A stretch of 55,592 nt of DNA, counting the filler, from Jimgerdemannia flammicorona (Eukaryota), in assembly GCA_003990765.1 (NCBI GenBank). It is 3 parts of 3 records of this genome, joined end to end, with 100 filler letters (N's around TTAATTAATTAA, not from the genome) between each part and the next. Parts side by side here need not be neighbours in the genome. Positions count along the whole stretch, not along the records: positions 37,139 to 55,592 come from RBNJ01002208.1; 2 more parts are not named here. The stretch is one strand, 5' to 3'. The notes under the pieces were generated by a model. The model saw only the letters and a list, made by a program, of their open reading frames with translations. It was not told where the DNA came from and did no database searches. Of the stretch, positions 3,554 to 55,592 are shown in pieces. Position numbers and translations under genes: made by a program. The first letter of the stretch is position 1; every line of letters starts with the position of its first letter.

Positions 3554-4651
3554 ATGACCACTGAGATCTATAACTGCATCCATACTGACATTTGGAATGC
3601 TATTGTCAACCAAGCCACACCCCCTCTGCCTCTCATGAATATCCATAGTTTAGCACTCCTCTACTTTGTGGAAGCCTGATGGAATGCCCTAAATATGCTT
3701 AGCGAAGTCCACTGAATTGAACAAATCTCAAGTTACTACCAGATGGGCTGTCTTCTAGAAGATATAGTCGAACACCACTATAATATGAATATTACTCAGA
3801 TAATATAACACCAGAAACTCATTGTCTATAAATACTGAGAACTCTTTTATGAGTATAGCACTGTTATCCCCCATCTCTGAGTTATTACTAGCAAAATGGT
3901 TACTATTCTTTCTTACCTCCAAATTGACAACATAATATAAGAATTCAACCACAAGTACCTCAAGTAAATTCAGACCACAGACAGAACCTTCCCATACCCT
4001 GATGACTATATCCTGCGAATACCTCAAGTCAGATACACCATGAAGGATGTCAATGACATAATCCAATTTGATGAAGATAAAGCAGAAGACAATGATCCCT
4101 CTGACACCAACATGACCTCCAGTTAAGAATCTCTGCCAACTCTAATCATACTACCAATCTTACCAATGTACTTACAACAATTCATAACCATCTATGAGAC
4201 CTACTGGGACAATGACCACTGGCATAAATACTAATCTGCATTCATCCTCAATTACTTCAACTACAATGAAGAGACCAGAGAATACAATCTATACCTCCAG
4301 ACAACCCTCAATATCAAACCAACCACTTCACCACTCAAGTATAAGCAATATGAGCCACAGCCACCAGCTTACTACAACCCTATAACTCATAGCACCATAA
4401 CCTATAAAAGATATGCAGACAGTAAATCTAATGAAAGTGAAGATGATATACCCCTCCTTCACCCACTGACACCTTATCCAGCATATGAGACAGATGATAC
4501 TATCCTGTGGGATGGTGATGAAGTTCCAATATATTATTACCTCAGTGAACAAGGAGAAGTAATCTGCGAACCACTCTTCCTAGATGACTACTTCATCAGA
4601 GATGATATCATTGATAGTGATGTCATCAAAGACTACCCAGATAGCATCTAA
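3554..4651 (+). pseudogene. LTR-embedded accessory ORF (365 codons), copy A5'
   Basis: ATG ACC ACT GAG to TAA spans 1098 bp, the same span in all four LTR copies. The stops I checked are sense codons in other copies. Confidence 0.8.
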
Positions 4652-11849: not shown

Positions 11850-13804
11850 TGTAAGTGCACAACCTCCAAGTCACTGAAATCACATATCACCCTCTGAACA
11901 AGCCACTGAAATCACATGCGAGCTCCAAACAAATCTGGAAATCACCTGCAAGATCACAAAGCTGAGTCAAACCGAAGTCACAGCATATAAAGCTGAGTTA
12001 ATATGAAGTCATAGAACACAAGATTTACATAAATGAGATCTTACTAATCAGGACTAAATATATATATACTGAGTACCAAGACACGTCAAAACAGAGAACA
12101 AAAACAAACAATAACCACAACTTCTGAATATACACAAACATGACCACTGAGATCTATAACTGTATCCATGCTGATATTTGGAATACTATTATCAACTGAG
12201 CCACACCCCCTCTGCTCCTCATGAATATCCATAGTCTAGCACCCCTCTACTTCATGGAAGCCTGATGGAATGCCCTGAATATGCTTAGCGAAGCCCACTG
12301 AATCAGACAAATCTCAAGCTACTACCAGATCGGTTGCCTCCTAAAAGATATAGTCAAACACTACTATGATATGGATATTACTCAGATGTCTCAACACTAG
12401 AAACTCATTGCCTATAAACACCGAGAACTCTTTTATAAGTATAGCACCATTATCCTCCATCTCTAAGTTACTATCAACAAAATGATTGCTACCCTTTCCT
12501 ATAGCCAAATTGATGACATAATACAAGAACTCAACCACAAGTACCTCAAGTACATTCAGACCACAGATAGAACCTTCTGATATCCTGATGACCATATTCT
12601 ACAAATGTCTTAAGTCAGATATACCATGAAGGATGTCTATGACATAATCTAATTCAATAAAGATGAAGCAGAAGATAATGATCCCTCTGACACCAACATG
12701 ACCTCCAGCCAAGAATCTCTGCCAACTCTGATCACACCACCAACCTTACCAATAAACTTACAACAGTTCATAACCACCTATGAGACCTACTGGGACAATG
12801 ATCACTGGCACAAATACCAATCCATGTTCACCCTGGATTACTTCAACTATAATGAAGAGATCAGAGAATATAACCTGTACCTCTAGACAACTCTTGATAT
12901 CAAACCAACCACTCCACTACCTGAGTATGAGCAATATGAGCTACAGCTACCAGCTTACTACAACCCTGCAACTCATAGTACTATAACCTATAGAAGATAT
13001 GCAGATAGCAAATCTAATGAAAGTAAAGATAATGCACTCCTCCTTTACCCACTGACACCTTATCCAGCATATGAGACAGATGATACTATCCTGTGGGATA
13101 GTGATGAAGTTCCAATGTATTATTACCTCAATGAACAAGAAGAAGTAATCTATGAACTACTCTTTCTAGATGACAACTTTATCAGAGATGATGCCATTAA
13201 TGGTGATATCATTAAAGACTACCCAGACAGTGTCTAAACCTATAAATAGCTTAGCAGTCATAGTATAGTTAGATTAGTCTTGTATGATATAACTGTGAAC
13301 TGACTCAGCAGTCAGATGATCTCTTGATATATCAGATCACACTTGTACTATGTAACTGTATTCTAACTCAACAAGGCACTAAGTGCTACATCCATATCTA
13401 GCCTAGTCCAGATAGCCCCTCACTAGTATAAATACTCCCTCCCCCAGACCTTAGAATCTCAGACTTAAACACTTGAACAATCTGAACACAACTCCTGAAC
13501 ACTTCTCCACAATATCCCTTTACATAACTACTCCTAGTATAGTAATATCATAAATAGTAAATAAATCTATTTAATAACCCACAAATCACTCTTAAGTAAA
13601 TCTGCTCTCTGTTAGGTCTCACTCCTAACCCCATCACGAAATTTCCTAATTGGGTATTGTCTGCAGTGATACACCAATTCAATAAAGCTGGTCTTAGTTT
13701 CTTGAACTTCCTGAAATACAGAAAATCCTAAATATCCAGAACTAGTCCAAAAAAGGACTTTGGTTGAGATGTCAATCCAATCTTGAAATCAATAAGTATA
13801 GAGG
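11850..13804 (+). repeat. 3' LTR of A (last ~120 bp missing)
   Basis: Starts TGTAAGTGCACAAC. Similarity to the other copies stops after AATAAGTATAGAGG. Confidence 0.92.
12140..13237 (+). pseudogene. LTR-embedded accessory ORF, copy A3'
   Basis: 1098 bp from ATG to TAA; includes track ORF 12698..12886. Confidence 0.8.
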
Positions 13805-18570: not shown

Positions 18571-18749
18571 AAGGTGTATCTCTTAGACTAACTCAAGTTT
18601 GTTATAAGTAAGTTCTTATTGGAGTACCTTCCCAAGGTCTTATAGTCCTCAAACTTCTTATCTTTAACTGTCTTGTTATCTCTTAGATTGCTTGCAAGGA
18701 AGTGTATAAGTGAAACCAGAACTGACTTTATTTCAGAGGAAATAAGAGG

Positions 18750-20606: not shown

Positions 20607-22659
20607 TATAAGAGGGTTGCTTTTTAGAGTAACTGTTACATAGTTCTGAAAGGGTTTTCTAGAAGTTCTGGATTTTCTGGAAGACCATTTTCTTATGGTC
20701 AAGATCAATTTCATATGGAGTACGTCCTCTATGCTTATTGATTTCAAGATCGAGTTGATGTCTCAACCAAAGTCCTTTCTCAGACTAGTTCTGGATGTTC
20801 AGAATTTTCTGTATTTCAGGAAGTTCAAGAAACTAAGACCAGCTTAGTTGAATTGGCATATCACTGCAGACAATACCCAATTAGAAAATTTCATGATGGG
20901 GTTAGGAGTGGGACCTAACAGGGAGCGGATTTACTTAAGAGTGGTTTGTGGGTTATTAAATAAGTTTATTCACTATTCATGATATTGCTATACTAGGAGT
21001 AGTTGTGTAAAGGAATATTGTGGGGAAGTATTCAGGAATGTTCTTATGTATTCGAGTCTAAAATTCTGAGGTCTGGGGGAGGGGGTATTTATACTAGTGA
21101 GGGGCTATCTGGACTATGCTAGATATGGATGTAGCACTAAGTGCCTTTCTGAGTCATAATGCAGTCATGTAGTACAAGTGTGATCTGACATGTCAAGAGA
21201 TCGCTGAGTCAGTTCACAGTCATGTCATACAATGCTAATCTAACTATACTATGACTGCTAGGCTATTTATAGGTTTAGGTACTGTCTGAGTAGTCTTCAA
21301 TGACATCACCATCAATTGCATCATCTCTAATGAAGTAGTCATCTAGGAAAAGTGGTTTGCAGATTACTTCTCCTTGTTTGCTGAGGTAGTAATATATTGG
21401 AACTTCATCTTCATCCCACAGGATAGCATCGTCTGTCTCGTATGCTGGATAAGGTGTTGGTGGGCGAAGAATGGGTGTATTGTCTTCACTTTCATCAGAT
21501 TCGCTGTCTGCATACCTTCTATAGGTTACAGCACTATGAGTCGCGGGGTTGTAGTAAGCTGGTGGCTGTAGTTCATGTCGCTCATACTCAGGTGGCGGAG
21601 TTGTTGGTTCAATTTCGAGAGTTGTCTGAAGGTATAGGTTGTGTTCTCTGGTCTCTTTATTGTAGTTGAAATAATCAGGAGTAAATGTGGGTTGGTATTC
21701 ATATCAGTGGTTGTTGTCTCAATAAGTCTCGTATGTAGTTATGAACTATTATAAGTTTATCGGTAAGATTGGCAGAGTAATCAGAGTTGGCAGAGATCCT
21801 TGGCTAGAGGTCATATCGGCATCGGAGGGGTCATTGTCTTCTGCTTCGTCTTCATCAAAGTGGATTATATCATAGATGTCTTTCATGGCATATCCAACTT
21901 GGGGCATTTGCAGGATGTGATCATTGGGGTGTGGAAAGGTTCTGTCTGTGGTTTCGATGTACTTGAGGTACTTCTGGTTGAGTTCTTGTATCATGTCATC
22001 AATTTGACCATAGGATAAGGTAGCAACCATTTTACTGGTAGTAACTCGGAGGCAGGGAATAATGGTACTGTACTCATAGAAGAGTTCTCGATATTTGCGG
22101 GTGATGAGCTTCTGGTGTTGAGACATCTGGATAATGTCTGTATCATGGTGGTGTTCGACCATGTCTTCCAGGAGGCGGCCGATCTGGTAGTAGCTTGAGA
22201 TTTGTCTGATTCGGTGGGCCTCACTAAGCATGTTCAGAGCATTCCATTGGGCTTCCACGAAGTAGAGGGGTGCTAGGCTATGGATATTCATGAGGGGCAG
22301 AGGGGGTGTAGCTCAGTTGACAATGGCATTCCAAATGTCAGCACAGATACAGTTGTAGATCTCAGTGGTCATATTTGTGTGTTTGGAAGTTGTGGTTGTT
22401 GTTTGTTTTGGTTCTCTTGATTCGATGCATCTTGGTGCTTGGTATATATACATTTAGTCCTGATTGGTAAGATTCTGTTTATGTAAATCTTATGTTCTGT
22501 GACTTCATATTGACTTAGCTTTGTGTGCTGTGACTTCGGTTTGACTTAGCTTCATGATCAAGCAGGTGATTTCCAGATTTGTTCAGGGTTGTGTGTGATT
22601 TCAGTGGCTTGTTCAGAGGGTGACGTATAATTTCAGTGGTTTGGGGTTGTGCGCTTACA
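20607..22659 (-). repeat. 3' LTR of B (2053 bp)
   Basis: TGTAAGCGC start at 22659, preceded by PPT 22660-22673. Confidence 0.95.
21275..22372 (-). pseudogene. LTR-embedded accessory ORF, copy B3'
   Basis: 1098 bp; contains the 180-aa track ORF 21749..22291 in frame. Confidence 0.82.
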
Positions 22660-22864
22660 ACTCTCCCCTTCTTAGCTTTCGACATCCTTGTCAGGGCCTT
22701 CTAATTTAGTTCAGTAGTACTGGGAGAATAGGCTTGCTTTCAGTTTTGCCATTTCTCTAGAGAGTCAGTATTCTTGTCTTGTTTTGCTGAGTTCTTGGTC
22801 TGGTTTGCGATAATTATAATGTTCAGGAGGATAGTGTGTACTGATAGGTGCAGAGTATTTGGTT

Positions 22865-28800: not shown

Positions 28801-28846
28801 GTTCAATTCTCTCCAGATTGTCAGATGGTTCAGGATAAATTCCAGT
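22865..28846 (-). pseudogene. gag-pol: Gag-dUTPase-PR-RT-RNaseH-IN-chromodomain polyprotein of B (in-frame stops)
   Basis: Track ORFs 27908..28369, 25742..26737 (dUTPase + PR), 25385..25639 and 25118..25363 (RT, YIDD), 24161..24532, 23741..23932, and 22865..23611 (IN + chromodomain EYEVEQIL..YLVKWK..TWEP). Zinc knuckle CFYCRKTGYMASAC at ~27005-27050. Confidence 0.94.
26519..26926 (-). CDS. dut: dUTPase domain within the B polyprotein
   Basis: Trimeric dUTPase motifs AAGYDL, TGI, (R)SSL, GGVIDKDYTGEI, IAQI and RGSKGFGSS. Confidence 0.92.
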
Positions 28847-28937
28847 TCAGAGGTTGGGCTTTATACCAACTTGTAGGAATTCTCAGAAGGGTTTGTAGTA
28901 GGTGAGAAAGTGTCTTGAAGCAGAATTGGATTATAAA

Positions 28938-28949
28938 CCACTGCTACCA
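28938..28949 (-). promoter_or_regulatory. PBS TGGTAGCAGTGG of B
   Basis: Lies 3 nt from the 5' LTR end. Confidence 0.88.
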
Positions 28950-28952
28950 AGT

Positions 28953-31014
28953 TGTAAGAGGGTTGCTTTTTAGAGTAACCATTATGTAGTTCTGAAAGGG
29001 TTTTCTGGAAGTTCTGGATTTTCTGGAAGACCGTTTTCTTATGGTCAAGATCAATTTCATATGGAGTACGTCCTCTATGCTTATTAATTTCAAGATCAGG
29101 TTGATGTCTCAACCAAAGTCCTTTCTCGGACTAGTTCTGGATGTTTAGGATTTTCCATATTTCAGGAAGTTCAAGAAACTAAGGCCAGCTTAGTTGAATT
29201 GGTGTATCGCTGCAGACAATACCCAATTAGGAAATTTCGTAACAGGGTTAGGAGTGGGACCTAACAGGGAGCAGATTTACTTAAGAGTGGTTTGTAGATT
29301 ATTAAATAGGTTTATTCGCTATTCATGATATTGCTATACTAGGAGTAGTTGTGTGAAGGGATATTGTGGGGAAGTATTCAGGAATGTTCTTTTGTGTTCG
29401 AGTCTGAAATTCTGAGGTCTGGGGGAGGGGGTATTTATACTAGTGAGGGGCTATCTGGACTATACTAGATATGGATGTAGCACTAAGTGCCTTGCTAAGT
29501 TGGAATACAGTCATATAGTACAAGTGTGATCTGACATATCAAGAGATTGTCTGACTGCTGAGTCAGTTCACAGTCATGTCATACAATGCTAATCTAACTA
29601 TACTATGACTGCTAGGCTATTTATAGGTTTAGGTGCTGTCTGGGTAGTCTTCGATGACATTACTATCAATTGCATCATCTCTAATGAAGTAGTCATCTAG
29701 GAAAAGTGGTTCACAGATTACTTCTCCTTGTTCGCTGAGGTAGTAATACATTGGAACTTCATCTCCATCCCACAGGATAGCATCGTCTGTCTCGTATGCT
29801 GGATAAGGTGTTGGTGGACGAAGGATGGGTGTATTGTCTTCGCTTTCATCAGATTCACTGTCTGCGTACCTTCTATAGGTTACAGCACTATGAGTCACGG
29901 GGTTGTAGTAAGCTGGCGGCTGTGATTCATGTCACTCATACTCAGGTGGCGGAGTTGTTGGTTTGATTTTGAGAGTTATCTGAAGGTACAGGTTGTGTTC
30001 TCTGGTCTCTTCATTGTAGTTGAAATAATCAGGGGTGAACGCAGGTTGGTATTCATGCCAGTGGTCATTGTCCCAATAAGTCTCGTATGTAGTTATGAAC
30101 TGTTATAAGTTCATTGGTAAGGTTGGCGGAGTAATCAGGGTTGGCAGAGATCCTTGGCTAGAGGTCATGTCAGCATCGGAGGGGTCATTGTCTTCTGCTT
30201 CATCTTCATCGAAGTGGATTATATTGTAGATGTCTTTCATAGCATATCCAACTTGGGGCATTTGCAGGATGTGATCATTGGGGTATGGGAAGGTTCTGTC
30301 TGTGGTTTTGACGTACTCGAGGTACTTCTGGTTGAGTTCTTGTATCATGTCATCAATTTGACCGTAGGACAAGGTAGCAACCATTTCACTGATAGTAACT
30401 TGGAGGCGGGGAATAATGGTACTATACTCGTAGAAGAGTTCTTGATGTTTGCGGGCGATGAGCTTCTGGTGTTAAGACATCTGGGTAATATCTGTATCAT
30501 GGTGGTGTTTGACCATGTCTTCCAGGAGGTGGCTGATCTGGTAGTAGCTTGAGATTTGTCTGATTCAGTGGGCCTCACTAAGCATGTTCAGAGCATTTCA
30601 TCAGGCTTCCATGAAGTAGAGGGGTGCTAGGCTATGGATATTCATGAGGGGCAGAGGGGGTGTAGCTCGGTTGACAATAGCATTCCAAATGTCAGCACGG
30701 ATATAGTTGTAGATCTCAGTGGTCATGTTTGTGTGTTTGGAAGTTATGGTTGTTGTTTGTTTTGGTTCTCTTGATTCGATGCATCTCGGTGCTCAGTATA
30801 TATGCATTTAGTCCTGATTGGTAAGATTCCGTTTGTGTAAATCTTGTATTCTGTGACTTCATATTGACTCAGCTTTGTGTGCTGTGACTTTGGTTTGACT
30901 CAGCTTTGTGATCAAGTAGGTGATTTCCAGATTTGTTCAGGGTCACATGTGATTTCAGTGACTTATTCAGAGGGTGACGTATAATTTCGGTAGCTTGGGG
31001 GTTGTGCGCTTACA
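28953..31014 (-). repeat. 5' LTR of B (2062 bp)
   Basis: Intact TGTAAG...CTTACA inverted termini. Confidence 0.95.
29629..30726 (-). pseudogene. LTR-embedded accessory ORF, copy B5'
   Basis: 1098 bp; track ORFs 30103..30384 and 29629..29898 are in frame with the ATG at 30726. Confidence 0.82.
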
Positions 31015-34000: not shown

Positions 34001-34727
34001 TATCAGCAATTTTCATTGCTGTATCTAGGTCCTTGGGTTCTTCTAGTTTGACACAAACTCGGGTTTGACCTTTCAGGCCTCAGATGTACTTGTCGACCTT
34101 CTCGTCTTCAGTGACATATGGTAATTCTAGTAGGATTGACAGGAATTGTGCATTGTATGCTTGCACAGACTTGAGTTGTTTGACGTTTGCCAGATGGTCT
34201 CGTGTGGCCTTGGTGCTGTTGACTGGTTTGAATTGGCCTTGAATAGCATCAGAGAATTCACCCCAGGTCTTGATTCGGCCAGAGAATCTGGTGTTCTGGA
34301 CATGATTTTGCCACCAGATTGTAGTATTCCCTTGAAGGAGTGTGGTAGCAAATTGGACTAGTGTTGCTTTTTCCAAATTGGTCAGTTCTCCATATTGCTC
34401 CAATTGGAAAAGCCAGGTGTCAGTAGACAGTCCTCCTCTTTGACGATCAAAGGTGTTGGGCTTCTGAGGCTTGATAGTGACTGCTGTCAGATGTATTGAT
34501 GTCAGTAGAGGTGCGGAGGTATGAGCAGGGGCCTTGCTTTCCTTTCTTTCTATGCATTCTTGAAGTTGAGCAATCTGAGCTAGTGCATTCTGCAAAAGAC
34601 TCTCGATGGCCCTGTTTGACTGAGTAGGGTTTTGCTATTCCTCTTCTTCTTGCTAATTGTACTGATTGTATGAGGTATTGCCTGGACCATAGGTACTATA
34701 TGAAGGATTCCACCCATTGTCCTCCAT
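31015..34727 (-). pseudogene. gag-pol: C gag-dUTPase-PR-RT-RNaseH and N-terminal integrase
   Basis: ORF 34080..34595 (retrotransposon Gag), ORF 33444..34016 (PMDLD, CFFCHQPGHIATKC, dUTPase), protease LIDSGA (~33190), and ORF 31272..32474 (RT YIDD, RNase H TDAS). Confidence 0.94.
33275..33690 (-). CDS. dut: dUTPase domain within the C polyprotein
   Basis: GAIGLDL, PTGL, IAPRSGL, GAGVIDPDF*GE, GDRIAQL and KGFGSTD. Confidence 0.92.
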
Positions 34728-34781
34728 AGTGTTGTAACTAATATCTTGAAAGGTGTCTTGATAAGGCTAGGTGTAACTTCA

Positions 34782-34793
34782 CCACTGCTACCA
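34782..34793 (-). promoter_or_regulatory. PBS TGGTAGCAGTGG of C
   Basis: Same 12-mer as B's PBS, 2 nt from the LTR. Confidence 0.88.
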
Positions 34794-34795
34794 AG

Positions 34796-35199
34796 TATAA
34801 TGGTTCTAGTTTCTAAATGAGGAAGCGACTAGTTCTGGTGGTCCTAAGTAGCTCAAAGAGATACTAAGGATTCAAGTGTTCTCGAAGGATTTCTGAGAGA
34901 AAATATTCTGAGACTTTATTCATAAGAACAAAGAGGATATTTATACAAGATCTGAAAGAAGGATCCGGAAGGATCTGAGAAATCAAAGGAAAATGCCAAG
35001 AGGAAAGTTCTTGGCAAAGATGACAAATGATGACAAATAAAGTTCTACAAGTTTCCAGGACATTCAGTGACTAACTAAATAAGTACTAGTTAATGCTCGG
35101 CACCAAGAAGGGGATTTCTAAGTGTGCGGAAAGTGCCGGAAGGTTATAGAATATTCAAAAAAGACAGAGAAAAGAAATAAACTATGCTAAAATGTTACA
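34796..35199 (-). repeat. 5' LTR of C
   Basis: Direct repeat of 18750-19153. Confidence 0.95.
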
Positions 35200-37038
35200 A
35201 GAGGGGTATTTATACAAAATATAATTCAATGGTTGCTAAGATATAAAGCTAAATATAAATTCCAATAACTAAAACTACTAAGTTCCAGGGTCGGCACTGA
35301 TAGTTGTACAGGTTCAGGATGCTGGTATTATTTAGTGTCACATCAAAATGCCAGTGCTGGAACAATTTCGCATCACCTCAGAATACCAGTGCTGGCATTA
35401 TCCAGTGTTATATGAGAATACTGGCGCTGGCATTATCCAGTGTAACAAAGAACTTAGAGCAGAAAGTTCAGGATCATGGGGGCTTCATCATCATCATCAT
35501 CATCATCACTGAAGGAGATGAGATCCGCGAATTCATCATACAGGTCGCATGTTTCATATACTTTGCGTGCTTCGGGTATATCGCGCGGGATGACGTCATT
35601 GCCGATGACATCATCACGTTCGGCTGTGGTGGGGAAATTGGGAACAAGATCTGGAGCTCTCCAGTCTATGAGGTTCTCTTCTACAAAATAGGGGACAAAT
35701 ATGGGGTCTTGGGGAGATCTAACCCAGATGCTTGGGCCTTGGAATACTGAGATCAATCCTTGTAGGAATTGGTCTGGGTTGTCCTGGAGGATGGGATGCT
35801 AGAAGTCTTCTACTTTATTGCTGTTGAGAGTGATAGTGGACTGAGCTTCTGTGACCGATCAGCTCCTTTCTCTGCTACCTTACCAGTCACAAGGTTTGGT
35901 AGATGACCTTCCGAGTCCCCTTTCCCCTATTATTACCCCCTCTACCTCGGGTTGGTTTGCTGTGCCTGCAGGGGCATGGTGGGAGGAGGGCAATGGTGAT
36001 GAGTTGCCCCTTTATCGGTGTCAGATCGGTGCTTCCTCCACTTTTTCGCGGATTCTGGTGCCTTCGGCTGCGTCTGAGGTATACCCATTTTGGTGCGGCA
36101 CCTTCTTCCTTTTGCCGTCGCCAACAAGGAGTTGTCTCGGTGTGTCTTGGGCTATGTAGGGAGTCGGCTGACCTTGGGCGTCAAGTGCTCAGTGTAGGTT
36201 ACCTGCAGGTCTTCAGTGCCTATAGTGGGGCTCTCTGGCTTTGGCGAGCTTCCTGGTGAGCGCAGTTCTGGCGTAGGTGACTGTTTTTCGGGTGTTGTCG
36301 GGATGGGAGAGGAGATGGCCATCACAGATAGGAGGAAGGGCGATTATGGTGAATCAGTAGGGTGCCAGGCTGGGGGTGGTCATCAGGGCTGGGGCAGGTG
36401 CTGCTTCAGTGGGGCCTTTTGATTGATGCGGCGCGGTTAGGTAGTAGGTGTCACTATCGGCTTCTTTTGGCAGTTAGTGGAGTTGGGCCCCAGTCATCAG
36501 GAGGGGTCAGGAGGCCTGAGGCTACCCATTTCAGGCATCTTGGCTGCACTCAACTAGAACTGGGAGCTGACACGGCAATGTGATCAAGGCCTGTAGGCTT
36601 GAGTAGTGGGGTATTGGGGATTTCCTCCCACCTCACGTATAAGTCCTTTACTCACCTCAACTGGGAGAACCAGGCCCTACCCACCGTATTGTGCTTTGAG
36701 GAGGGTTTTTTCTTTGCCTGTCATTCTCTTTGGGGTGGCAGGGGCTATTCTATTCAGCTCGGGCATGGCCTTGTACATATGTTGGGTTCTCGAGTATGCG
36801 CTTTCAGTTGTTGGCATATGGTTGGGTTTCCCCTGGTGGTAGGGAGAGCATGGTGCACAGAATGAGGTGCGGGCACATAACAGTCCTGCTGCGCCTGGCA
36901 CAGTCAAGCTGCTGGACAATAGCTAGCCTAGGTTAATGGGAGGGCAGTGCTTGGTGGGTGGTGGGGGAGGGTTTTGGCCTATATAGTCTAGGTTCCCTTC
37001 CAATAAAATTCTGCGGGACATGAGTCCGTTAAAAAAAA
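35200..37038 (-). mobile_element. LTR-like region of family D (continues at 18571-18749), with TATA box, short tandem repeats and an accessory ORF
   Basis: GTATAAATACCCC on minus at 35203-35215. GTGCTGGCATTATCCAGTGT-type repeats at ~35290-35445. Upstream ORF homologous to the family E LTR ORF. Termini are not visible because of the gaps. Confidence 0.65.
35454..36930 (-). pseudogene. Family D accessory ORF (stop-interrupted; C-terminal 100 aa = track ORF 35454..35756)
   Basis: C-terminus PILQDNPDQFLQGLISVFQG..VPY..NLIDWRAPDL..FADLISFS..PMILNF aligns with the family E LTR ORF. The 5' limit is uncertain. Confidence 0.6.
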
Positions 37039-37138
37039 NNNNNNNNNNNNNNNNNNNNNNNNNNNNNNNNNNNNNNNNNNNNTTAATTAATTAANNNNNN
37101 NNNNNNNNNNNNNNNNNNNNNNNNNNNNNNNNNNNNNN
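37039..37138. other. Assembly gap with TTAATTAATTAA linker
   Basis: N run. Confidence 0.95.
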
Positions 37139-37377: not shown

Positions 37378-40263
37378 TTCTAAATCATGGTTAATACTCT
37401 AGAACCCTGAGCACTACTGTAAAACCAGTAGTCTCAGTAGTCCAAGATTTGGCTGAGACTATTTCTGATCATATCCAAATGACAAGGAATGCTCTCATAG
37501 AAGTACAAGACTACCAGACTAAGTATGCCAACTTGAAGTAAAGAGAAGCCTCCTATAATATTGGTGATATGGTCATACTCAGAATAGACTATCTTCACTC
37601 TAATACTCTAGCCCAGCAACCATCTAAGAAGCTTCATGCCAGAAGGATTGGACCATATAAGATTGTGAAAAAAGTCAGTAAAATCAACTATAAGCTGTAA
37701 CTCCCTACTAATATCTAAGTTCACCTAGTATTCCATATCAGTCAACTGGTAGACTACCATGTGAATCTATTTCCTGAGCATATAGTTTCATCACTACTCC
37801 TAATTAGGATCAATGATCACAAGGAATTTGAAATTGAGAAAATACTTGACCACAAGATCTGCAAATATACTAGAATAGCTAAGTAGTATTATCTTATCAA
37901 GTAGAAGGATTACTCTACTCATGATGCCACCTGGGAAAAAGAAGAAGTACTGGAGAATATATATGAAGCTCTTCAGAACTATATGGAAACACTCACTCCT
38001 CAGTAAAGAAGGGAACTACAGCTCTAAAAATAGTGAGTATATAGCAAATATAGTGATAATACATATTTATCTAGGATATATAATATCAAATATTATGAAG
38101 AAAAAGAATACTATAATTAGCCAATAAGACAAAAGAATGTTCAGATGAAGAACTCTCCTGAACTAACCCAGCAGAGTTTAGCAAAATATATTTGAACAAC
38201 TCTATTTATGCCATCTGTATCATCTTTATTGAAGAATGATAGATGTTTTATATGGAACTCAAGAAAGCCAACAATCTTAGAACCAGACTCAAGTTCATCT
38301 ACATAATAGATATTATTACTAGAAATTGCCTCAGATTACAAGAAAGTCTATTTTCAAGAGGTTCAAACCCCCAGCTATAATATTGAGAGCCCTTGCCCTA
38401 GATAAGAATAGCCAGTCCTTGGAATATACATCAATGAAACAAAAAAAAAAAAAAACTAAGACCTGTTAACTCTGTGTAACCATAACTGCAAAGTGATAAT
38501 ATCTGTAAAATCAGTAATCTTCATATGACTAGCACATGCTCTGCTTATAGTAACAGATCATATATACCCCTAGGAATGTGATCAAAATGAAGTTATACCA
38601 GACAGGTGAATAAGCATATATATCCAGAGAAGAAACACCTTGTAACCCTCTTCCTCCTTTCCTCTACACAAAGAAAAAATAATATAAAAATACCTATCAT
38701 CTGCCACCAATCTACCCACTACAGCCAGCTCCTGTGAAGCCAAGTGGACAGCCTTTTTGGACATATCCAAATCACTATCTAGAGAAGGAACTGCTGCTCT
38801 AAGGCCCTTAATCTCACCAGCTAGGACCTAGGACACTATGTTCTCAACTGCCACAAAATTATAGAAAGGTCCTACCTTGCTACTAGCTGTCTAGATATCT
38901 GGTATGAATATGAAATTGGACACCAACTCTGCCAGCAGACATAAGACCAAACTGCTGAACAGATCATAGACTGAGTCCACTAAGACAGATATAAGCAAAG
39001 ACTAGTCAAGAAGGTCTACCAAATCATGAAGTATGCACCCTTTGCAATCTCTAACCTTATCTATGTATAACTGAAGGATTTTTAGAACCTCTCCTACTCT
39101 GAGATTAATGCTTTGGAAATTAAGATCATACAAGAAGTTCACTCTTGAATCTCTCTCCTAAATAACAACTCAGACCAATAAATCTAAGGTCTCTCTGACC
39201 TCTTTAAAGGACTGTCCATCTGAATAGATATCCCCTGTATAATGAGCAAGTACCCTATATAGATGGCCTCAACCACATTAGATAGAGAACTCCTACCCTA
39301 CTATCTGCCTCAGCTCAAGAATCATTTGGAGACCTAATTGACTTCTCCTCTCTTAACATCAAGCCATCATCAATTATCCCTCCTATTCTTGGTATAAAAG
39401 ACTATAATAAGAGAGATAAAGTGGAGAATTTCCCAATTTCTCCCTTAGTTCTTAATTTCCAGATCAATAAGAATAGTGATCTCTTTTAAGGGTAGAAGAA
39501 TATAATAAAGTGAATAGATGAGATGTGACAATGAATAAAGATACAATGAGTGATCATATGACTCTATAATAATAATATTACAATCAAGCAATATATAACA
39601 AATAACATATAAATATAACAAATAAGTAGGATGTGAATGATGCAAATAATGTAAATGATGAGATAAATAATATCTAGCTTATCCCCAGCAATCAGTCTGT
39701 AGTAAATTACTGTAGTAACTAATTATTACATAATAAAGATCTTGATCACAAAGGTCATGATCACAAACTCACCATAGTCACCCAAATTAGTCATTTATAC
39801 TTAGTCGGAAATCATGAACCAATCTGTATAAATACCCCCCATATTTTTATCTAAAATAAAGATAGTTTTAGTTTAGTCCTTAATATAAGAATGAAGTCCT
39901 CTTTTCATATATACATTCTCCTGAGTCTTAGTAATGACATCTAAGTGACTCTAGTATTTCTGACTAAACTCTAGAAGTCTAGCTAACTTCTGCCAGAACT
40001 AAGACTGGTATATAATTACAAAGACTTAAGGAAAACTCCTTATTGAATCTGAATTCCAAGGCAAATTCAGTCTATATATAGCAAAGAACAAGTCTCTTAC
40101 AACTATGATTGATAAGAAGAGTACTACCACTATAACTATTTTCAAGCAAGCACTTCCTCAAACTGAAGACTTCTTGGTATACTTATGTACTAAGTCCCTA
40201 AGTAATATCTTATTTTTCTAATTATTTAAGGATAAGAGAGGGGTAGAAATAACAATTATTATA
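37378..40263 (+). mobile_element. Chromovirus family E copy E1: integrase C-terminus and chromodomain, plus ~2.2-kb 3' LTR (38040-40263)
   Basis: GPY motif and chromodomain (EFEIEKILDHK..HDATWEK). Duplicate of 41770-44390. LTR bounded by TATAGC and ATTATA (decayed TGTAGC/GCTACA); TATA at 39826-39838. Confidence 0.8.
38140..39489 (+). pseudogene. Family E LTR-embedded accessory ORF, copy E1 (5' limit approximate)
   Basis: Hand translation: ..IWYEYEIGHQL..KQRLVKKVYQIMKYAPFAISNL..NLSYSEINAL..FGDLIDFS..PLVLNFQ..DLF*. Confidence 0.7.
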
Positions 40264-40505
40264 CTGACCCTACTAGGCTATTTACTTTGACCACAGATAC
40301 CTCTGATATTACTATTGGGGCAGTTCCTAGCTAAGAAGATTGCCCAGTAGCCTACCTGTCCCAAAAGCTCAAGCTAGCTGAGATCTGATATACTATCCAT
40401 ATGAAGAAACTTCTGGTCATTATCATTGCACTTTAGGAATAGTGTTATTTCCTCTTAAGATAATTATTCATGGCCTACACTGATCATCATACTCTATAGT
40501 ATATC

Positions 40506-40748
40506 AAAAAGCAAAAACTTTTTAGATGAGTCCTACATATATTACAATATGGGTCCTCAATTTATTTTCTTCCAAGTGTGTCAGTACTGTTTCACAGACC
40601 ATCTCACCCATGGAGCCCACCTCACACATACCACCTCACCAAGCTCATCTGAGCCTTTTTTCAGTCATACTATTGGTTGATCTTGTAATCCAGCTATCAC
40701 ACCTCAGTCAGCAGCACCTGATGGGTTTCATCCTCTGAGTTATGGTCC
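40506..40748 (-). mobile_element. 243-bp insertion with a 16-bp TSD (TPRT-type retroposon fragment)
   Basis: TACTCTATAGTATATC occurs at 40490-40505 and 40749-40764. Removing the insert restores the RNase H TDH..LxYI..Q.M. segment. AATAAA on minus near its 3' end. Confidence 0.75.
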
Positions 40749-42559
40749 TACTCTATAGTATATCTATACTCAGCCCATGCTGATCTATAAACAAGCCCAT
40801 TGGATGGAAATCATTACTAACTTCAATATGGAAATTAAGTATATCTCAGGCAAAACCAACCATATAGCTGATGGTTTCTCCAGATATATAGAAGATAAAC
40901 TTACCATTATGGTCAAGATTATTGGAGACCTCACTCAGATAATCAAAGATAGCTACCAAAAGGACAGTCCTCTGATAAAATTCCTTCAATTCTGCTAAGA
41001 CCCAGAGGCTGAGGTCCCAGAAGCTATAAAAAGAATATCTAAGAGATTTACATACTATGATGAACTCATCTATATGGACTATGATAGAGTGGTAGTATCT
41101 AATGATAATACTCTGTAGCTCAAGATCATGCAGAAACTTCATAATACTCCGATAGCAGGATACTTTGGTTTTGAAAAGACCTACAATCTCCTCTCAAGAG
41201 AGTTTTACTGACCAAAGATGATCAAGGATATCAAAGACTTTGTGGCCTCATGTGAAATATGTCAAAGATTCAGATAACAAACTACCTGCAGGACTTCTAC
41301 AATCTCTGTTCATTACTAGTCATAACTGGGATTAGATTGTAATGGACTTCATGTCCAGCTCTCCAAAACCAAGGCAGAATGGGATACCATTGTAGTATTT
41401 GTGGACTGCCTGAGTAAGTAAGCTCATTTTGCACCCACTAAGACCACTTTGACAGCCCCTGAGATTGTCGAGATCTTTCTTAACCAAGTATTCAGACTAT
41501 ATAGTATGTCTAGCACTATTATATCTGACTGAGATGCTAAGTTTACAAGCAACTTCTGGAAGATATTCTTTTCTCTCTATGATACCAAGTTGAAGTTCTC
41601 TATAGCCTACTATCTCCAGACTGACAGTCAGACTAAGTGAACTAATAGGACTCTCAAGCAGATACTTAGCATCTTTTGCTATTATAAGTAAAATGATTGG
41701 GACAAGTACCTAGCCTATACCAAGTTTGCCTATAATAATAGTCAGCAAATCTTTACAAAGAAGACTTCATTCTTCCTGAACCATAGATAACACCCAAGGA
41801 CCCCAAGTACTACTGTAAAATCAGCAGTCCCAGCAGCATAATATTTGGCTAAGACCATTTCTGATCTTATCCAAATGATAAGAGATACTCTCATAGAAGT
41901 ACAGGACTATCAGACCAAGTATACCAACTTGAAGTGAAGAGAAGCCTCCTATAATATCAGTGACATAGTCATACTCAGAACAGACTATCTTCACTCTAAT
42001 ATCCTGGCCCAGCAATTATCCAAAAAGCTTTATGCCAGAAGAATTGGATCATATAAGATTGTGGAAAAAGTCAGTAAAGTCAACTACAAGTTGCAACTCT
42101 CTGCCAATATCCAAGTTCACCCAGTATTCCATATTAGTCAACTGGTGGACTACTATGTGAATCTATTTTCTGAGCATATAGTTCCACCACTATACCTAAT
42201 TAGGATCAATGATTATGAGAAATTCAAAATTGAGAAAGTACTTAATCACAAGGTCTGCAAATATACTAGAATAGCTAAGTAGTTTTTTCTCATCAAGTGG
42301 AAGGGTTATCCCACCCATGATGCCATCTGGGAAAAGAAAGAAGTACTAGAGAATATATGTAAAGCTCTTCAGAACTATATGGAAACACTCACTTCTCAGT
42401 AAAGAAAGGAACTATAGCTCTAAAAAATGGTGAGCATATAGCAAATATAGTAATAATATATATCTATCTAAGATATATAATATCAAATATTATAAAGAAT
42501 AGAAATACTATAATTAACCAACAGAAGAACTCCTCTGAACTAACTTAGTAAGGTTTAGC

Positions 42560-43654
42560 AAAATACATTTGAACAACTCTATTTATACCATCTGTATCAT
42601 CTCTATTGGTGAATGATGGATACTTCATATAAAATTCAAGAAAGCCAACTATGTTAGCATATGCTCTGCTTACAGCAACAGATCATATGTGCCTCTAGGA
42701 ATGTGATTAAAATGAAGTTACACCAGATAGGTGAATAAGTATAAATACTCAGAGAAGAAATACTTTGTAACCCTCATCTCCTTTTCCTCTCTACAAAGAA
42801 AAAGCAATATAAGAATGCCTGCTACTTACTGCCAAACTGCCTGCCACAGCTAGCCCCTACTAAGACAAGTAAACTGCCTTTTTGAATATATTCAGATTAC
42901 TATTCAAGGAAGGAACTACTGCTCTGAGGCCCTTAATCTCACCAGTCAGAACCTAGGACACTATGTTCTCAATCACTATAAAGTCATTAAAAGGGCTTAC
43001 TGTACTACCAGCTACCTAGAAATCTAATATAAATATGAAATTAGATACTAACTCTACCAGTGAACATAAGACTAAACTGCCAAACAGATTATGGACTAGG
43101 CTTATTTAGATAGGCATAAGCAAAAACTAGCTAGGAAGTTTCACTAAATTATGAAGTATACACCCTTTAAAATTCCCAATCTTACTTATATATAACTAAA
43201 GAATTTCCAGAACCTCTCCTATTCTGAGATTGATGCATTGAAAATCAAGATCACACAAGAAGTCTACTCTTAGATTCCTCTCAAGTTTACTGACTGCAAA
43301 CTCTACTAGAGTCTCCTCCTGAATGATAACTCCGACCAACAGATCCAAGACCTCTCTGACCTCTTTGAAGGACTACCTATCTGAATGGATATCCTTCTGC
43401 ATAATGAACAAGAACTCTATATAGATAGCCCTAATTACATTAGATGGTGAACTCCTATCCTATAGTCTGCCCTAATTTAAGAATTATTTGAAGATCTCAT
43501 TGACTTCTCCACCCTTGATATTGAGCCATCAATAACTACCTCTCTCACTATTGACATGAAAGACTATAATGAAGTAGAGGATGAAGTAGAGAATTCTCCA
43601 ATCCCTCTCTTGGTTCTTAATTTTTAGATCAATAAGGATAGTGATCTCTTTTAA
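42560..43654 (+). pseudogene. Family E LTR-embedded accessory ORF, copy E2 (internal deletion relative to E1)
   Basis: ..LDRHKQKLARK..IPNL..NLSYSEIDAL..LLNDNSDQQIQDLSDLFEG..FEDLIDFS..PLLVLNF..DLF*. Confidence 0.7.
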
Positions 43655-44390
43655 GAGGAGAAGGATGTAACAGAATGATATAAATAAGTAAATAGACAAG
43701 ATATAATAATGAAGAATAATATAATAAACAATCACATGACCCAGCAGTGATGATATTATAATTGAGTGATATATGATGAATAATATATAAATAATGAATA
43801 TAACAAATGAACAGAATATAAATGATATAATAAATAATATCTAGCTTATCTCTAGCAACTGGTACCACAGTAAATCACTGCAGTAACTAATTATTACCTA
43901 ATAACCCATATTATAAAGGTTCTGATCACAAAGGTCCTGATCACAAAGATCATAATCACAAACTCACCATAGTTACTAAATTAGTTACTTATACTTAACA
44001 AGAAATCATAAACCAACTTATATAAATACCCCCCATATTTCCATCCAAAATAAAGATAGTTTTAGTTCAGTCCTTGATATAAGAATCAAGTTTCTCCTCT
44101 ATATACACATTCTTCTAAGTCTTAGTAATGATACCTAAGTAACTCTAGTATTTCCAACTAAACTCTAAAAGTCTAGCTAACTTTTACCAGAACTAAGGCC
44201 AGTATATAAATCACAAAGACTTAAGGAAACTTCTTATTGAACCTGAATTCCAAGGTGAATTCAGTCTGTGCACAGCAAGAACAAGTCTCTTACAACTATG
44301 GTTGATAAGAAGGATACTACCACTACAACTACTTTTAAGCAAGCACTTCTTTATACTGAAGACTTCTTGGTATACTTATATACTAAGTTC

Positions 44391-47065
44391 CAGTAGAGGA
44401 AGAGGGCTCAGTAGGAGCCAGGAGAGTGAACCCAGAGCTAGTGTCAAAGTGAACAGAAGATATGTAGGAGAGCATATATAAGAGGGATGAATAAAGAATG
44501 TAATCAAAAATGCATCAGCCATTTATTGCTATGTAAAAATGCAGTCCTCATATACAAAATATGATATCCCAAAAGAGAGAATATGCCACAACTTGGGGTG
44601 AACTAAATTAGAAACCACATAACTACCAGAGATAAGTAGAGATAAAGAGAGAGCCAATCCTAGTTGTAAGATAAAAATCACAAACAAACACAAATAAAAC
44701 AAATCCAAATCAAGATTAAAAAACATCCACAGACTCTAGAGAGATGAGTATGAACAAGGAATAAGGCCAAAACAGAACAAACTATAGTGAGCTTGAGTGA
44801 AGCAAGGGGCTGAAGGTAGTGGAGGGGAGTAGAGTGAAGGCTGAGACTCCAGAGCAAGCATGAGAGGGAGCAAGGATGTTTTTTAATTCTCTTTAGAAGA
44901 ACTGAAGGCACCAGAAGGTGATGAAAATACAAAATGAGAGTGATAGATTAGAGAAGAAATAGAAGAAAGATATAAATATTAATCAGAGGGCATTAGGATA
45001 GAGATGAAAGTCCATAGCATAAATACTCAGAGTACATCAGAAGTGATGATGGAATCCAAGATGGGATGAGGACACTGGGGGAGAACCATACCAGAGAGAA
45101 GTTTAAGAATGAGAGACCTTCTCCTTCCCTCTGACTTTTTTTGAAGGTAGTGAGCCTGACAAGTGAGAGCATACTCCATCAGAGTGCCAGACCTTGTAGC
45201 CATAGGCTTTCATGCAGCCCTTACACTTGGGGGCATGAGTAGAGGAGACAGAGGAAGAATCAGCAGAAGAAGCAGAGAGAGAGTAAGCAGTCAAAGGGGC
45301 AGCAGTGCAAGGGACACCACTATGGGGGCAGACAGACTTAACTGGGTGCCAATAGATATAGTGAAAGTGACTAGAGCAGACAGCACAGAGCCAAGCCCCA
45401 ACAGAGTGAGAACCAAGTTGGCTGCCATACTTGGGGGCAGGGGGAATGGAGGAGGAGGCCTTGGCAGGGGAGAGAGACCAGGAAGAGGCTGACAAAGCCT
45501 TATTGAGCTTAGTGGGGGTCTTGACAGAGACCTTGGCAGTGGCAGTGGCAAAAGAATGAACCTTGATATGAGCAGCAGTATGAGCTTTAGTATAGATGGT
45601 CTCAGAGACTGAAACCTCAGAAGAGGTGAGCAGGGGAGCAGTGGTGGTAGTACAAGCAGCAGTAGTAGTATGTGACATTTCCTGCTCATGAAGATAAGTG
45701 ACAAAGGAGGTATCAGCAAGGAGGAAGCAACAAACTGCATCAATATCAGTGGTGACAGAGAGAATATCTTGGATAGTAAAGCTATAAAAAGAGACAGAAT
45801 CTACAAAGCAGGAGAAGGTGAGGGCTATGAAAGAGGCACAAGTATAGTGGAAGAAGATAGAAGCAGTGGTAGCAGTAGCAGTGGCAGCATCAGCAGTAGC
45901 AAGCTTGGCAGTGATAGAGGCAGTGTGAACCTCTTCAAAGAGGGCTTGATGGCAGACCTTGGGGAGAATGGAATAGTAAATGGCAGGTATAGTAATAATG
46001 TTGACATTATAGCAGAGATAAGCCTCCTTAGCAGAGAGGGCAAGGACTGACCAAAACTGAGAGAGGAGCAGATGACCAGATGGATAAAGGTCCAGAGAGA
46101 GTGAAAGAATGGTGGATGAGACATAGGTCTTGAATGAGATAGTAGCAGAGATGAAAGTGGGGGGAGGGGGAGAAGGAAAAACCTCATCCATAACCTTGTT
46201 AATGGAGATAGAGGCCCTGAGGGCAGACAGTATAACAGTAGAGGAAGAGGGCCCAGCAGTAGCCAGAGGAGTAAATCCAGAGCCAGTGTCAAAGTGAATA
46301 GAAGATATATAGAAGAGTATGTATAAGAAAGATAAATAAAGAATATAACTGAAAATATATCAGCCATTTATTGCTATATAAAAATACAGTCCTTATATAT
46401 AAAATATGACATTCCAAAAGAGAGAATGTACCACAACTTAGGAAAAACTGAATTAGGAACTATATGACTGTCAGAGATAAGTAGAGATAAAGAGAGAGTC
46501 AATTTCAGTTGCAGGATAAAAATCACAAACAAATATAAATAAAACAAATCTAAATTGAGATTAAAAAATATCCACAGACTCTGGAGAGATGAGTGTGAGC
46601 AAGGGGTGAGGCTGAAACAGAGCAAGTCACAGCAAGCCTGAGTGAAGCAAGGGACTGAAGACAATAGAGGGGAGCAGAGTGAAGACTGAGACCCCAGAGC
46701 AAGTATGAGACCCTGGAGAGGACAAGAATGTTTTTTAATCTTGATTTGGATTTGTTTTATTTGTATTTGTTTGTAATTTTTATCCTGCAACTGGGATTGG
46801 TACTCTCTCTTTATCTCTGCTTATCTCTGATAGTCATGTGGTTCCTAATTTGGTTCACTTTAAGTTGTGATGCATCCTTCCTTTTAGGATATCATATTTT
46901 ATATATAAGGACTGTGTTTTTATATAGCAATAAATGGCTGATGCATTTTTAGTTCCATTCTTTATTCATCCCCCTTATATATACTCTTTCACATATCTTC
47001 TGTTCCCTTTGACACTAGCTCTGGGTTCACTCCCCTGGCTCCCACTGGGCCCTCTTCTTCTATTG
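44391..47065 (-). mobile_element. Unclassified element with ~340-bp terminal inverted repeats, an internal ~500-bp direct repeat and one zinc-finger ORF
   Basis: X at 44391-44728 and 46236-46573; inverted X at 46726-47065; spacer S at 44729-44873 and 46574-46725. Confidence 0.7.
45103..46191 (-). CDS. 362-aa Ser/Ala/Thr-rich protein with two C-x2-C-x9-H-x4/5-C motifs (Gag/ORF1-like)
   Basis: Uninterrupted ORF containing CAVCSSHFHYIYWHPVKSVC and CKGCMKAYGYKVWHSDGVC. Confidence 0.6.
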   Translation of the reverse strand: MDEVFPSPPPPTFISATISFKTYVSSTILSLSLDLYPSGHLLLSQFWSVLALSAKEAYLCYNVNIITIPAIYYSILPKVCHQALFEEVHTASITAKLATADAATATATTASIFFHYTCASFIALTFSCFVDSVSFYSFTIQDILSVTTDIDAVCCFLLADTSFVTYLHEQEMSHTTTAACTTTTAPLLTSSEVSVSETIYTKAHTAAHIKVHSFATATAKVSVKTPTKLNKALSASSWSLSPAKASSSIPPAPKYGSQLGSHSVGAWLCAVCSSHFHYIYWHPVKSVCPHSGVPCTAAPLTAYSLSASSADSSSVSSTHAPKCKGCMKAYGYKVWHSDGVCSHLSGSLPSKKVRGKEKVSHS

Positions 47066-48850: not shown

Positions 48851-49501
48851 CTAGTATGATATAGTACTTATCAGTAGTCACAAAAAGTCATCTGATTGGA
48901 TTTGAACCCCCAGTCTGCAACCTGGAGGACAATGTCTTAACAGAGTGATCAACTTTCCATCTAAAGTCAAAAGAAGAAAATTTCAAGCTAATAAAACTCC
49001 ATATTTTTCCATATGATCAGTACATACTCTGCTTATAGTAACAGGTCATGTATTTCTCAGAAATGTGATCAAAATAAAGTTACACTAGCCAGATGAATAA
49101 GTATTAATACTCAGGTCAAGGATACTCTACAACCTCTATCTCTTTTCTCCTCTTCAAAAAAAAAACAATATAAAGAATTCCTACTGCCTACTGCCAAACT
49201 GCTTATCAAAACCAGTCTCTTCTAAGCTAGATTGATCACCTTTTTAGATATATATATTCAGATCACTATCCAAGGAAGGAACTGCTGCTCTGAGGCTCTT
49301 AACCTCACTAGTTAAGACCTAAGACACTATGTTCTCAACTATAAAGTTAAAGATAGGGCTTATCTTGCTACTAGCTGTCTTAAAATCTGGTATGAATATG
49401 AAATTAGATACCAACTTCTCCAATAAGTACAAGACCTAACTACTAACCAAGTTACAGACTAGGCTCACCTGGACAGATATGAGTAAAGACTTACTATAAA
49501 G

Positions 49502-50217
49502 AGCCTGGAGTGCTGAGGTATGATAGTGGATACTGCTAAAGAACTGGGTGGTCTAGTGGTATACGCTATAGAGAAATATTATGCTCAACTTCCACTCAGG
49601 ACACCTTGTCAAGGGGAGAAGCTTTGACTGTAAAGAGTGCCACAATGTGGGACAAGAGGGGAGATTTATACAGATATCAGAATATTGGCTAGGAGAGTGT
49701 GAGGTACTTGGTGACTTTTGGCTAATAGTTGGAGATTGATTGGATATCATATATAGGAAAGATAGTAAGCAGGGTCAGTGGGAGGATTTGAGGGATAGAC
49801 TGGTGGGGGGGGTGGGAAAGGAGTGGCTTACTTTAGATTAGATATTGGCAGTTTGGGTAGGGTTGGTAGATCACTAGTTGTTTGTTTTTGAGGAAGAGAG
49901 AAGCCTGGGTTTGGGGATGAGACTGTTGAGATGAAAAGGGATAATAGAGGACATTATGGTAGGCTGGTGGCTTGGCTGGGGTCTGCAGAGTGGTCAGAGG
50001 TGTTATTTGGTAGAGAATATCTATAGACAGAGTAGAGGGAGAATTGGAGTTGTAGATGATAAGATAGTCTTCAAATATGAAAGTATGGGGGGGAGACTCT
50101 TTTATGAGGATTGAGTAGTGGGAGAAAATCCTATAACTATAACTATAACAATAGACTGGTAATAAATTGCAAAGTCCAAGTAACTATAAAAAGAAAAAAA
50201 AGAAAAAAAAAAAAAAA
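49502..50217 (+). mobile_element. 5'-truncated LINE (same family as 51209-55592) with poly(A) tail and a TSD of at least 14 bp
   Basis: Aligns with ~54910-55592. AATAAA then an A-rich tail. TSD GACTT(A/G)CTATAAAG at 49488-49501 and 50218-50231. Confidence 0.92.
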
Positions 50218-51208
50218 GACTTGCTATAAAGGTTTATCAAATTATATAGCATATATCTTTTACAATCTCCAATCTCACCTATGTATAACTGAAGGACTTC
50301 CAGAGTCTCTTCTTCTCTAAAATTAATATATTTAAGATCAAGTTACCAAAGAAGCTCATTCCTGGATCATCCTCAAGTCTACTAACTGTGAACTCTACTG
50401 AAGCCCTCTCTTAAATGACAATCTAGACCAATGGCTTCAAGGTCTTTCTGATCTCTATAAAAGACTACATATCCAAATAATATCCCCAGGTATGATTAGC
50501 AAGTTATCTATCTAGATGACCCTAACTATATTAGATAGAGGACCTCTATATTATTATCTACAGATACTCAACAACCATTTGCAGACCTCATTGACTTCTC
50601 TATATTTAATACTAAGCTATAGCAACTACTCTTCTAATTACTAGTAGAGAAGATAACAATAATGAGATAAATAAGATAGAGAATGTCTCAACCTCTCTCT
50701 TAGTTCTCAATTTTCAAATCAATATAGACATTGACTTTTAAGAGAGAAAAGATATAATAGAATAAGTGCAAGCAAACAGATGAGATATAATAAATGATCA
50801 TATGACTAATAATGATATTATAATTGAGTATAATATATAATGATGAATATAATGAATAAAATATAAATAATATGAATAATCCAGATAAAACAATATCTAG
50901 CTTATACCCAATAATCAGTGCTACAGTGTAATAGAACGAACGAGCAAGCGAACAGATGAGATGTGATGAGCAATCATGTGACCCAGCGATGATGTCATCA
51001 TACGATCGAGCACGACATATGACGAACGAACGAACAATGTGAAAAACGATATCCAGTTTATCTCTGACAACCGGTGCTGCAGCAATTGTTACCACAGTAG
51101 CTGATCATTGCCTAGTAATTGAGATCCTGATCACAAAGTTGTTTTTGCCAAAAACCACCTGACAAAGGTCACAATCACAAACCTCATTATAGATACCAAA
51201 TTAGTCAC

Positions 51209-55522: not shown

Positions 55523-55592
55523 TGGGTCGGAATGATGTATATTTACTCATAGACTGGTAATAAAGGTGGAGTCCAAGTGACTATAAAAAAAA

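Follow-up and report, generated by a model that had tools for sequence, protein, structure and literature searches.

Retroviruses keep several accessory genes in, or overlapping, the unique 3' (U3) region of their long terminal repeats (LTRs): the LTR open reading frame (ORF) sag of mouse mammary tumour virus, nef of human immunodeficiency virus and tas/bet of the foamy viruses, whose Tas protein has both a part for binding and an acidic part for activation. In LTR retrotransposons, extra genes are rare and mostly unexplained. Described cases include the additional ORFs (aORFs) reviewed in PMC7264820, the extra element-borne ORF 'brtn' of Botrytis BcGypsy1 (10.1101/2021.04.13.439636) and an 'add. 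ORF' labelled in a figure legend of PMC2864245. Here we analysed a joined stretch of 55,592 nucleotides from Jimgerdemannia flammicorona (the window, to which all coordinates refer), and in it the segment 38895-39140 (+), which a first-pass annotation had read as a protein module borne by the LTR of a chromovirus family (family E) and shared with an ORF in the LTRs of a second family (A/B). The family E LTR copies (E1, E2 and E3) lie in the part of the window taken from RBNJ01002208.1. The segment is most likely part of a dead protein-coding frame wholly inside the U3 of the family E LTR. From its location, its decay pattern, its weak likeness to the A/B ORF and the common LTR layout, we infer that the frame is probably a remote homologue of the U3-embedded accessory gene of A/B, dead in the window.

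The segment translated as the first-pass annotation had quoted it, and self-comparison by blast bore out the ~2.2-kb LTR around it while also locating the diverged copies E2 and E3 (Table 1). The long ORF described in this LTR stood only in part: a former ORF is likely, but none is open today, with 5 stops in the module part of E1 and 8 in the matching stretch of E2. Across the 279 codon columns, each E copy has 10-16 stops; frameshifts in E1 and E3 add to these, so the frame is not open. The peptide that had been quoted for E1/E2 proved to be a composite of copies. The spacing of the motif from H to D held in that A/B and E align without gaps, but the 'x10' before I-P is actually x11 in both families.

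The counterpart in the A/B LTRs is a single 365-codon frame kept in 4 of 4 copies; the three whose stops were counted have 5-9 each. It starts 288 bases into the LTR and stops 190 bases short of the TATA-like word TATAAATACCCCC. Two open database proteins, both named 'hypothetical protein', match it: P0001 (128 aa) is 89% identical to its N-terminal part and P0002 (247 aa) 63% identical to its C-terminal part. The retention of the frame in all four copies and the two matching open proteins indicate that the A/B LTR ORF is, judged by its sequence, a real gene. With open relatives elsewhere, it has firmer support than the E remnant and is more worth studying. A PPxY motif of the A/B tail was dropped, as it is not conserved in P0002.

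BLASTP aligned the A/B sequence B3 with E2 over 56 residues without gaps (14/56 identical, 25%; 22.3 bits, expect value (E) = 0.019 for the pair). Profile-profile alignment with hhalign gave P = 0.0048 (probability 7.4%) in a first run and a score of 29.0 (P = 0.003, probability 10.4%) with a trimmed E alignment; none of 180 column shuffles reached 29.0 (mean 14.6, maximum 25.2), and a reversed control scored 14.1. Smith-Waterman alignment of raw E2 scored 57, a value reached by 5 of 1000 residue shuffles. Hence the likeness exceeded shuffled controls in the profile-profile comparison that the first-pass annotation had proposed as a check, and in pairwise alignment as well. The A/B profile was also searched against a six-frame translation of the window in which X replaced each stop. 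Its best non-self match fell in E2, in the claimed frame and register (Table 1), and the next match scored 2.2 bits. When the E profile was searched in turn, the B3 ORF came second among the non-self matches (5.0 bits, E = 0.55). A C/G-preferring comparison of the E copies, in which C was taken over T and G over A in each column where they differ, scored 6.6-7.4 bits with the A/B profile (reached by 1/3000 global and 2/3000 local shuffles), and the other frames that were scored reached -4 bits at most. In a sign test on residue states, the C/G-side residue was closer to A/B in 20 columns, farther in 7 and equal in 5; the test is weak, 7 of 251 shifted registers doing as well, and it depends on the alignment itself. 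As a targeted pair, the two sequences beat chance weakly, at about 1e-3 to 2e-2 (1e-3 to 5e-3 by Smith-Waterman, profile search and hhalign), while the blind search of the window was not significant (E = 0.16). At 38895-39140 itself the likeness is at noise level, with no signal unless E2 is brought in.

Nucleotide identity of the aligned block was 41% overall and 0.38/0.54/0.31 by codon position, against ~0.3 in shifted registers, and this codon-position profile places the likeness at the protein rather than the DNA level. Consistently, the first-pass statement that A/B and E have no evident DNA similarity was confirmed, blastn giving no match at E ≤ 1e-10. Both ORFs have the same order of parts, namely an N-terminal stretch, the module and an acidic aromatic-rich tail. 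The tails are of similar composition (D+E 21%, K+R 4% and isoelectric point 4.05 in E2; D+E 22%, K+R 4-5% and isoelectric point 4.05 in A/B). AlphaFold modelled the longest open stretch of the A/B ORF (187 residues) as three long helices, at low confidence (mean predicted local distance difference test (pLDDT) 42.4).

The decay of the E copies was strongly biased. E1 and E2 differed in their alignment by 334 transitions and 49 transversions. Short stretches related to the E LTR (80-95% alike) were present in soil-metagenome contigs, and in them G/C was commoner where the window has A/T; run X1 differed from the window by 227 A>G and 275 T>C (502 places) versus 123 C>T and 98 G>A (221). The contigs reading G/C and the transition excess indicate that the window copies lost C/G by deamination-type change. 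One run, guessed to be RNA, had short contigs on the E LTR, which is no demonstration of transcription. In the raw copies, the claimed frame had a stop in 28 of 279 codon columns: 19 with a sense codon differing by transition only in another copy, 3 common to all copies and 6 other. Stop columns not linked to sense by transition numbered 9 in this frame versus 17, 31, 14, 14 and 29 in the other five. The C/G-preferring comparison left 1 stop in the claimed frame versus 9, 20, 8, 8 and 22 in the others, and plain majority rule left 9 versus 15-35. Moreover, within the frame both transitions (62/39/67 at the three codon positions, p = 0.019) and G/C content (identical G/C sites 81/53/79) showed 3-periodicity, which was absent from the flanking LTR parts (p = 0.16 and 0.71). 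Transversions in the E ORF were patternless by codon position. Four of its nine indels were multiples of three (36, 3, 3 and 3, versus 4, 1, 1, 1 and 1), but multiples of three were not clearly rarer outside the ORF, so that indel lengths give no conclusion. Together, these patterns suggest that the family E LTR likely once held an ORF of ~279 codons in the claimed frame, and we graded the support for it as moderate.

Family E had been called unrelated to A/B. This was refuted by its RNase H-integrase, 40-47% identical to those of A/B and C in tblastx (29-48% at the pol 3' end), and by common TATA and primer-site words. We call E a chromovirus by this RNase H-integrase/pol likeness, the chromodomain itself having been found in A/B and C. 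As the first-pass annotation had noted, TATAAATACCCCC follows the frame in both E and A/B. With at most one mismatch, the word occurs 8 times in the window (positions 4841, 13427, 18887, 21081, 29427, 35202, 39827 and 44021) versus 0.10 expected: in the four A/B LTRs, in E1, in E2, in one C LTR and 3 bases past the point where the alignment of the other C LTR ends. It is probably a core-promoter word common to the chromovirus lineage or the host. A primer-binding-like word follows the A/B LTRs (5325-5340; 28940-28955 on the minus strand), and public contigs that exit the window at 40261, the end of E1, continue into this same word. The presence of one such word after both LTRs suggests that A/B and E probably use the same transfer RNA primer. 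In both families the reading frame (that of E1 and the A/B ORF) lies wholly within the LTR, upstream of the TATA word.

The host of these elements was approached through the reverse transcriptase (RT) of family C (31275-32474, -). The named eukaryotes among its 120 best matches listed were all streptophytes, at 46-50% identity (Vitis, Chara, Closterium, Apium, Iris, Juncus, Striga and Rhynchospora); the other names among these 120 were four prokaryote or metagenome-bin labels, and none was a fungus. The best unnamed full-length matches were 55-57% identical. These RT matches do not by themselves point to a fungal host and leave a fungal setting of the elements open to doubt.

The alternative that survives best is chance likeness: the E frame would be no gene, or an unrelated former ORF, and the motif a by-eye composite of decayed, A/T-rich, helix-like copies. 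Several results favour it and weigh against homology. The likeness stays below database significance, with hhalign probabilities of 7-10% and window-wide E of 0.16 and 0.55, and the top non-self match of the reciprocal search was an unrelated place (35640-35795, -; 7.0 bits). E1 had no signal of its own: BLASTP reported no such alignment with it, its raw Smith-Waterman score of 34 was reached by 422 of 1000 shuffles, and the A/B profile scored it at -2.3 bits. With the majority-rule consensus, the A/B profile score fell to -2.6 bits. The whole motif occurs in no single E copy, and one module stop is common to all three. By raw stop columns, the claimed frame and frame +1 are hardly distinguishable (28 versus 27, of which 3 versus 4 are shared). 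For E2, AlphaFold reached a mean pLDDT of 30.6, and neither protein had a usable fold. Furthermore, the E1-E2 differences by codon position gave no sign of purifying selection between the E copies: the rate of change per G/C site was about equal at the three codon positions, which makes the E1-E2 divergence neutral decay, and the idea of a domain under selection was not borne out.

The database searches add to these points. The A/B profile, run against 1.84 billion representatives, returned four matches at E ≤ 0.001, of which only P0001 and P0002 are true relatives, and there were no distant relatives of the A/B ORF among the representatives. A word-indexed search of 5.8 billion proteins for E-like ones returned 5793 candidates, 0 of them at E ≤ 0.1. 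Metagenome contig scans with E and with A/B produced pattern matches and no tblastn relative. Pfam-A, which includes families of retroviral accessory proteins, gave 0 families at E ≤ 1 for P0001, P0002, P0004 and P0005; the A/B profile matched 0 chains of the PDB by sequence at E ≤ 5; and in the ESM Atlas recognition was below threshold and the matches were unrelated. The broader family of LTR-borne accessory proteins envisaged at first did not emerge, A/B having two database relatives and E none. Similarly, the domain that the first-pass annotation had likened to the module, from hypothetical proteins of early-diverging fungi, was not found in the protein, Pfam, PDB or metagenome searches. 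The other two A/B-profile matches, P0006 and P0007, are repeat proteins: P0006 was set aside as spurious because it 'matches' 24 unrelated Pfam families without a single significant stretch, and P0007 was rejected, its sequence being made of long tandem repeats.

Against chance, four scorings of the targeted pair gave the values above, and the match fell in the one frame that copy comparison and 3-periodicity had independently picked. The E match is also collinear with A/B, an acidic tail of the same type comes after it, and the two families are related and have a common LTR layout. We consider a chance likeness possible, but on this evidence rather unlikely.

If the likeness is real, the module might have moved between families by recombination or capture instead of being inherited with the LTR, an option raised by the first-pass annotation. 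The short-LTR family C, whose integrase is equally similar, has no such ORF, which fits a transfer but is not direct support for it. The blastn comparison detected no DNA similarity, third codon positions are at background identity, and two families are too few for a tree test. In addition, the E-A/B likeness is far weaker in the ORF than in pol, which fits the old vertical descent of a fast-evolving gene. Such a transfer is very improbable. A conserved DNA or RNA signal of U3 (an enhancer or packaging signal), with the peptide likeness as its by-product, is hardly credible: cis-acting signals do reside in U3 and the TATA word is indeed common to both families, but identity in the block peaks at second codon positions (0.54-0.57) and is at background at third (0.28-0.32), and neither the overall identity nor blastn points to conserved DNA.

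Under descent from a common U3 gene, the former ~279-codon E frame would be remotely homologous to the 365-codon ORF that A/B carries at the corresponding place in its LTRs. The two proteins would have in common a module of ~55-80 residues, predicted with low confidence to be helical, followed by a strongly acidic, aromatic-rich tail. The position of the E ORF upstream of the LTR TATA word places it in U3; consequently, only the copy in the 3' LTR would be within the full-length element RNA, behind pol, and an ORF entirely inside the repeat is present in two copies per element. Expression would then depend on a spliced or subgenomic RNA or on a separate promoter. The product might be an accessory protein that serves the element as a regulator; one option, equally tentative, is a transcriptional activator or silencing antagonist with the acidic tail as its effector part. 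A more ambitious version is speculative and, in our view, doubtful. In it, a chromovirus lineage of a soil eukaryote, possibly a streptophyte and not a fungus, would carry an old U3 gene that predates the split of families with ~45%-identity integrases; this gene would have a nef/sag-like position and would be unlike known proteins, and its product, made up of a helical module and an acidic effector tail, would target either transcription of the element itself or silencing by the host.

If two long-diverged families did keep the same gene in U3, it would have been useful to the element for a long time, and it would be a clue to the way such elements regulate their expression or escape silencing. 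The claim depends on a single weak alignment, in a window whose E copies are all dead, and for now it is a lead rather than a result.

Table 1. Coordinates of the features discussed, in positions of the whole window unless LTR positions are stated.
Feature	Position	Strand	Description	Basis
Module part of E1 remnant	38895..39140	+	82 codons, 5 stops	frame read
E1 ORF remnant	38690..39489	+	13 stops (E2-based codon columns); 1-base deletion near 39215 shifts frame	
E2 ORF remnant	42815..43654	+	279 codons, one frame, 16 stops; ATG start in E2	
Best non-self match to A/B profile (profile positions 77-134), in E2	43088..43261	+	6.1 bits, window-wide E = 0.16	
TATA-like word TATAAATACCCCC in E1	39827..39839	+	338 bases past frame end	
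TATA-like word TATAAATACCCCC in E2	44021..44033	+		
E1 LTR layout	LTR positions		~2.2 kb; ORF at about 650-1450; TATA word at 1787	
A/B LTR layout	LTR positions		~2.06 kb; ORF at 288-1385; TATA word at 1575	
A/B LTR ORF, element A 5' LTR	3554..4651	+	365 codons, 9 stops	
A/B LTR ORF, element A 3' LTR	12140..13237	+		
A/B LTR ORF, element B 3' LTR	21275..22372	-	365 codons, 5 stops; longest open run 187 aa	
A/B LTR ORF, element B 5' LTR	29629..30726	-	6 stops	
E1	38040..40263	+	family E LTR, ~2.2 kb, strongly decayed by transitions	self-blast, alignment
E2	42440..44391 (approx.)	+	second family E LTR copy; 3' end cut by another repeat	self-blast
E3a	49010..49491	+	first piece of third E LTR; holds module start; interrupted by insertion	self-blast, alignment
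E3b	50215..50919	+	rest of third E copy; three 1-base indels	self-blast, alignment
Element A (family A/B)	3266-13804	+		self-comparison
Element B (family A/B)	20607-31014	-		self-comparison
Family C element	18749-35199		405-base LTRs; element B nested inside	self-comparison

A Pfam scan and self-comparison by blastn resolved the window into decayed, nested Ty3/gypsy chromoviruses, in which gag, dUTPase, protease, RT, RNase H, integrase SH3-like domain and chromodomain were detected. Families A/B and C matched RVT_1, RT_RNaseH, SH3_Tf2-1, Chromo and dUTPase. The A/B LTRs are ~2.06 kb long, the 5' LTR of element A spanning 3266 to ~5325. Between gag and protease, A/B and C carry a dUTPase domain (25745-26974, -, E 4e-32; 33447-34079, -, E 2e-16, respectively); the dUTPase-bearing chromoviruses described in PMC2864245 come from fungi. 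The E1 LTR is joined directly to an RNase H-integrase part (40264-42440, +), without primer site, gag, protease or RT, and is either a deleted element or a recombinant of two elements.

Beyond E2, at 45106-46359 (-), lies a fully open 418-codon frame without Pfam match. It is flanked by direct repeats (44391-44887 and 46236-46739, 83% alike), runs into the second of them and has an inverted third copy of the repeats nearby (46728-47065); frame and repeats may be another small repeat-flanked element. A non-LTR retrotransposon at 52157-54652 (+), with an endonuclease/exonuclease/phosphatase remnant, an open 624-codon RT frame and 53% G+C, is much less decayed than the surrounding LTR elements. 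E3 is interrupted by pieces related to it, 49504-50195 being ~70% alike to 54909-55592. Runs of N (4 x 44 N, in two pairs) occur at 18471-18570 and 37039-37138.

Compared with its closest relative, the A/B ORF with P0001 and P0002, the E frame likewise lies wholly in the U3 of a ~2-kb LTR, upstream of TATAAATACCCCC, and it aligns with the A/B ORF without gaps over 50-56 residues at ~25% identity. By contrast, it is shorter (~279 codons), its tail is not confidently alignable, every copy is broken and the likeness is below database significance. Like the aORFs of LTR retrotransposons covered in PMC7264820, the E and A/B ORFs are element-borne, stand besides gag and pol and have no assigned function; unlike the aORFs as presented there, they are entirely inside the repeat and occur in two copies per element. 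The main text of that review contains neither 'within the LTR' nor 'in the LTR' nor 'inside the LTR', and thus does not describe LTR-internal ORFs in those words. A narrow literature search, likewise aimed at phrases such as 'ORF within/in the LTR', found no account of an ORF contained entirely in the LTR of a chromovirus. LTR retrotransposons are already known to carry extra ORFs; a position wholly inside a chromovirus LTR would be the new part, with modest support.

The retroviral accessory genes offer the other comparison. Unlike them, the E and A/B ORFs have no Pfam likeness at E ≤ 1, a non-animal host and no env. Like sag, nef and tas, they come after pol, in the U3 of the 3' LTR, at the 3' end of the genomic RNA, and the proposed combination of a module with an acidic effector tail resembles that of foamy-virus Tas. 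A gene wholly inside the repeat is duplicated at every insertion, and this one sits where retroviruses keep nef, sag and tas.

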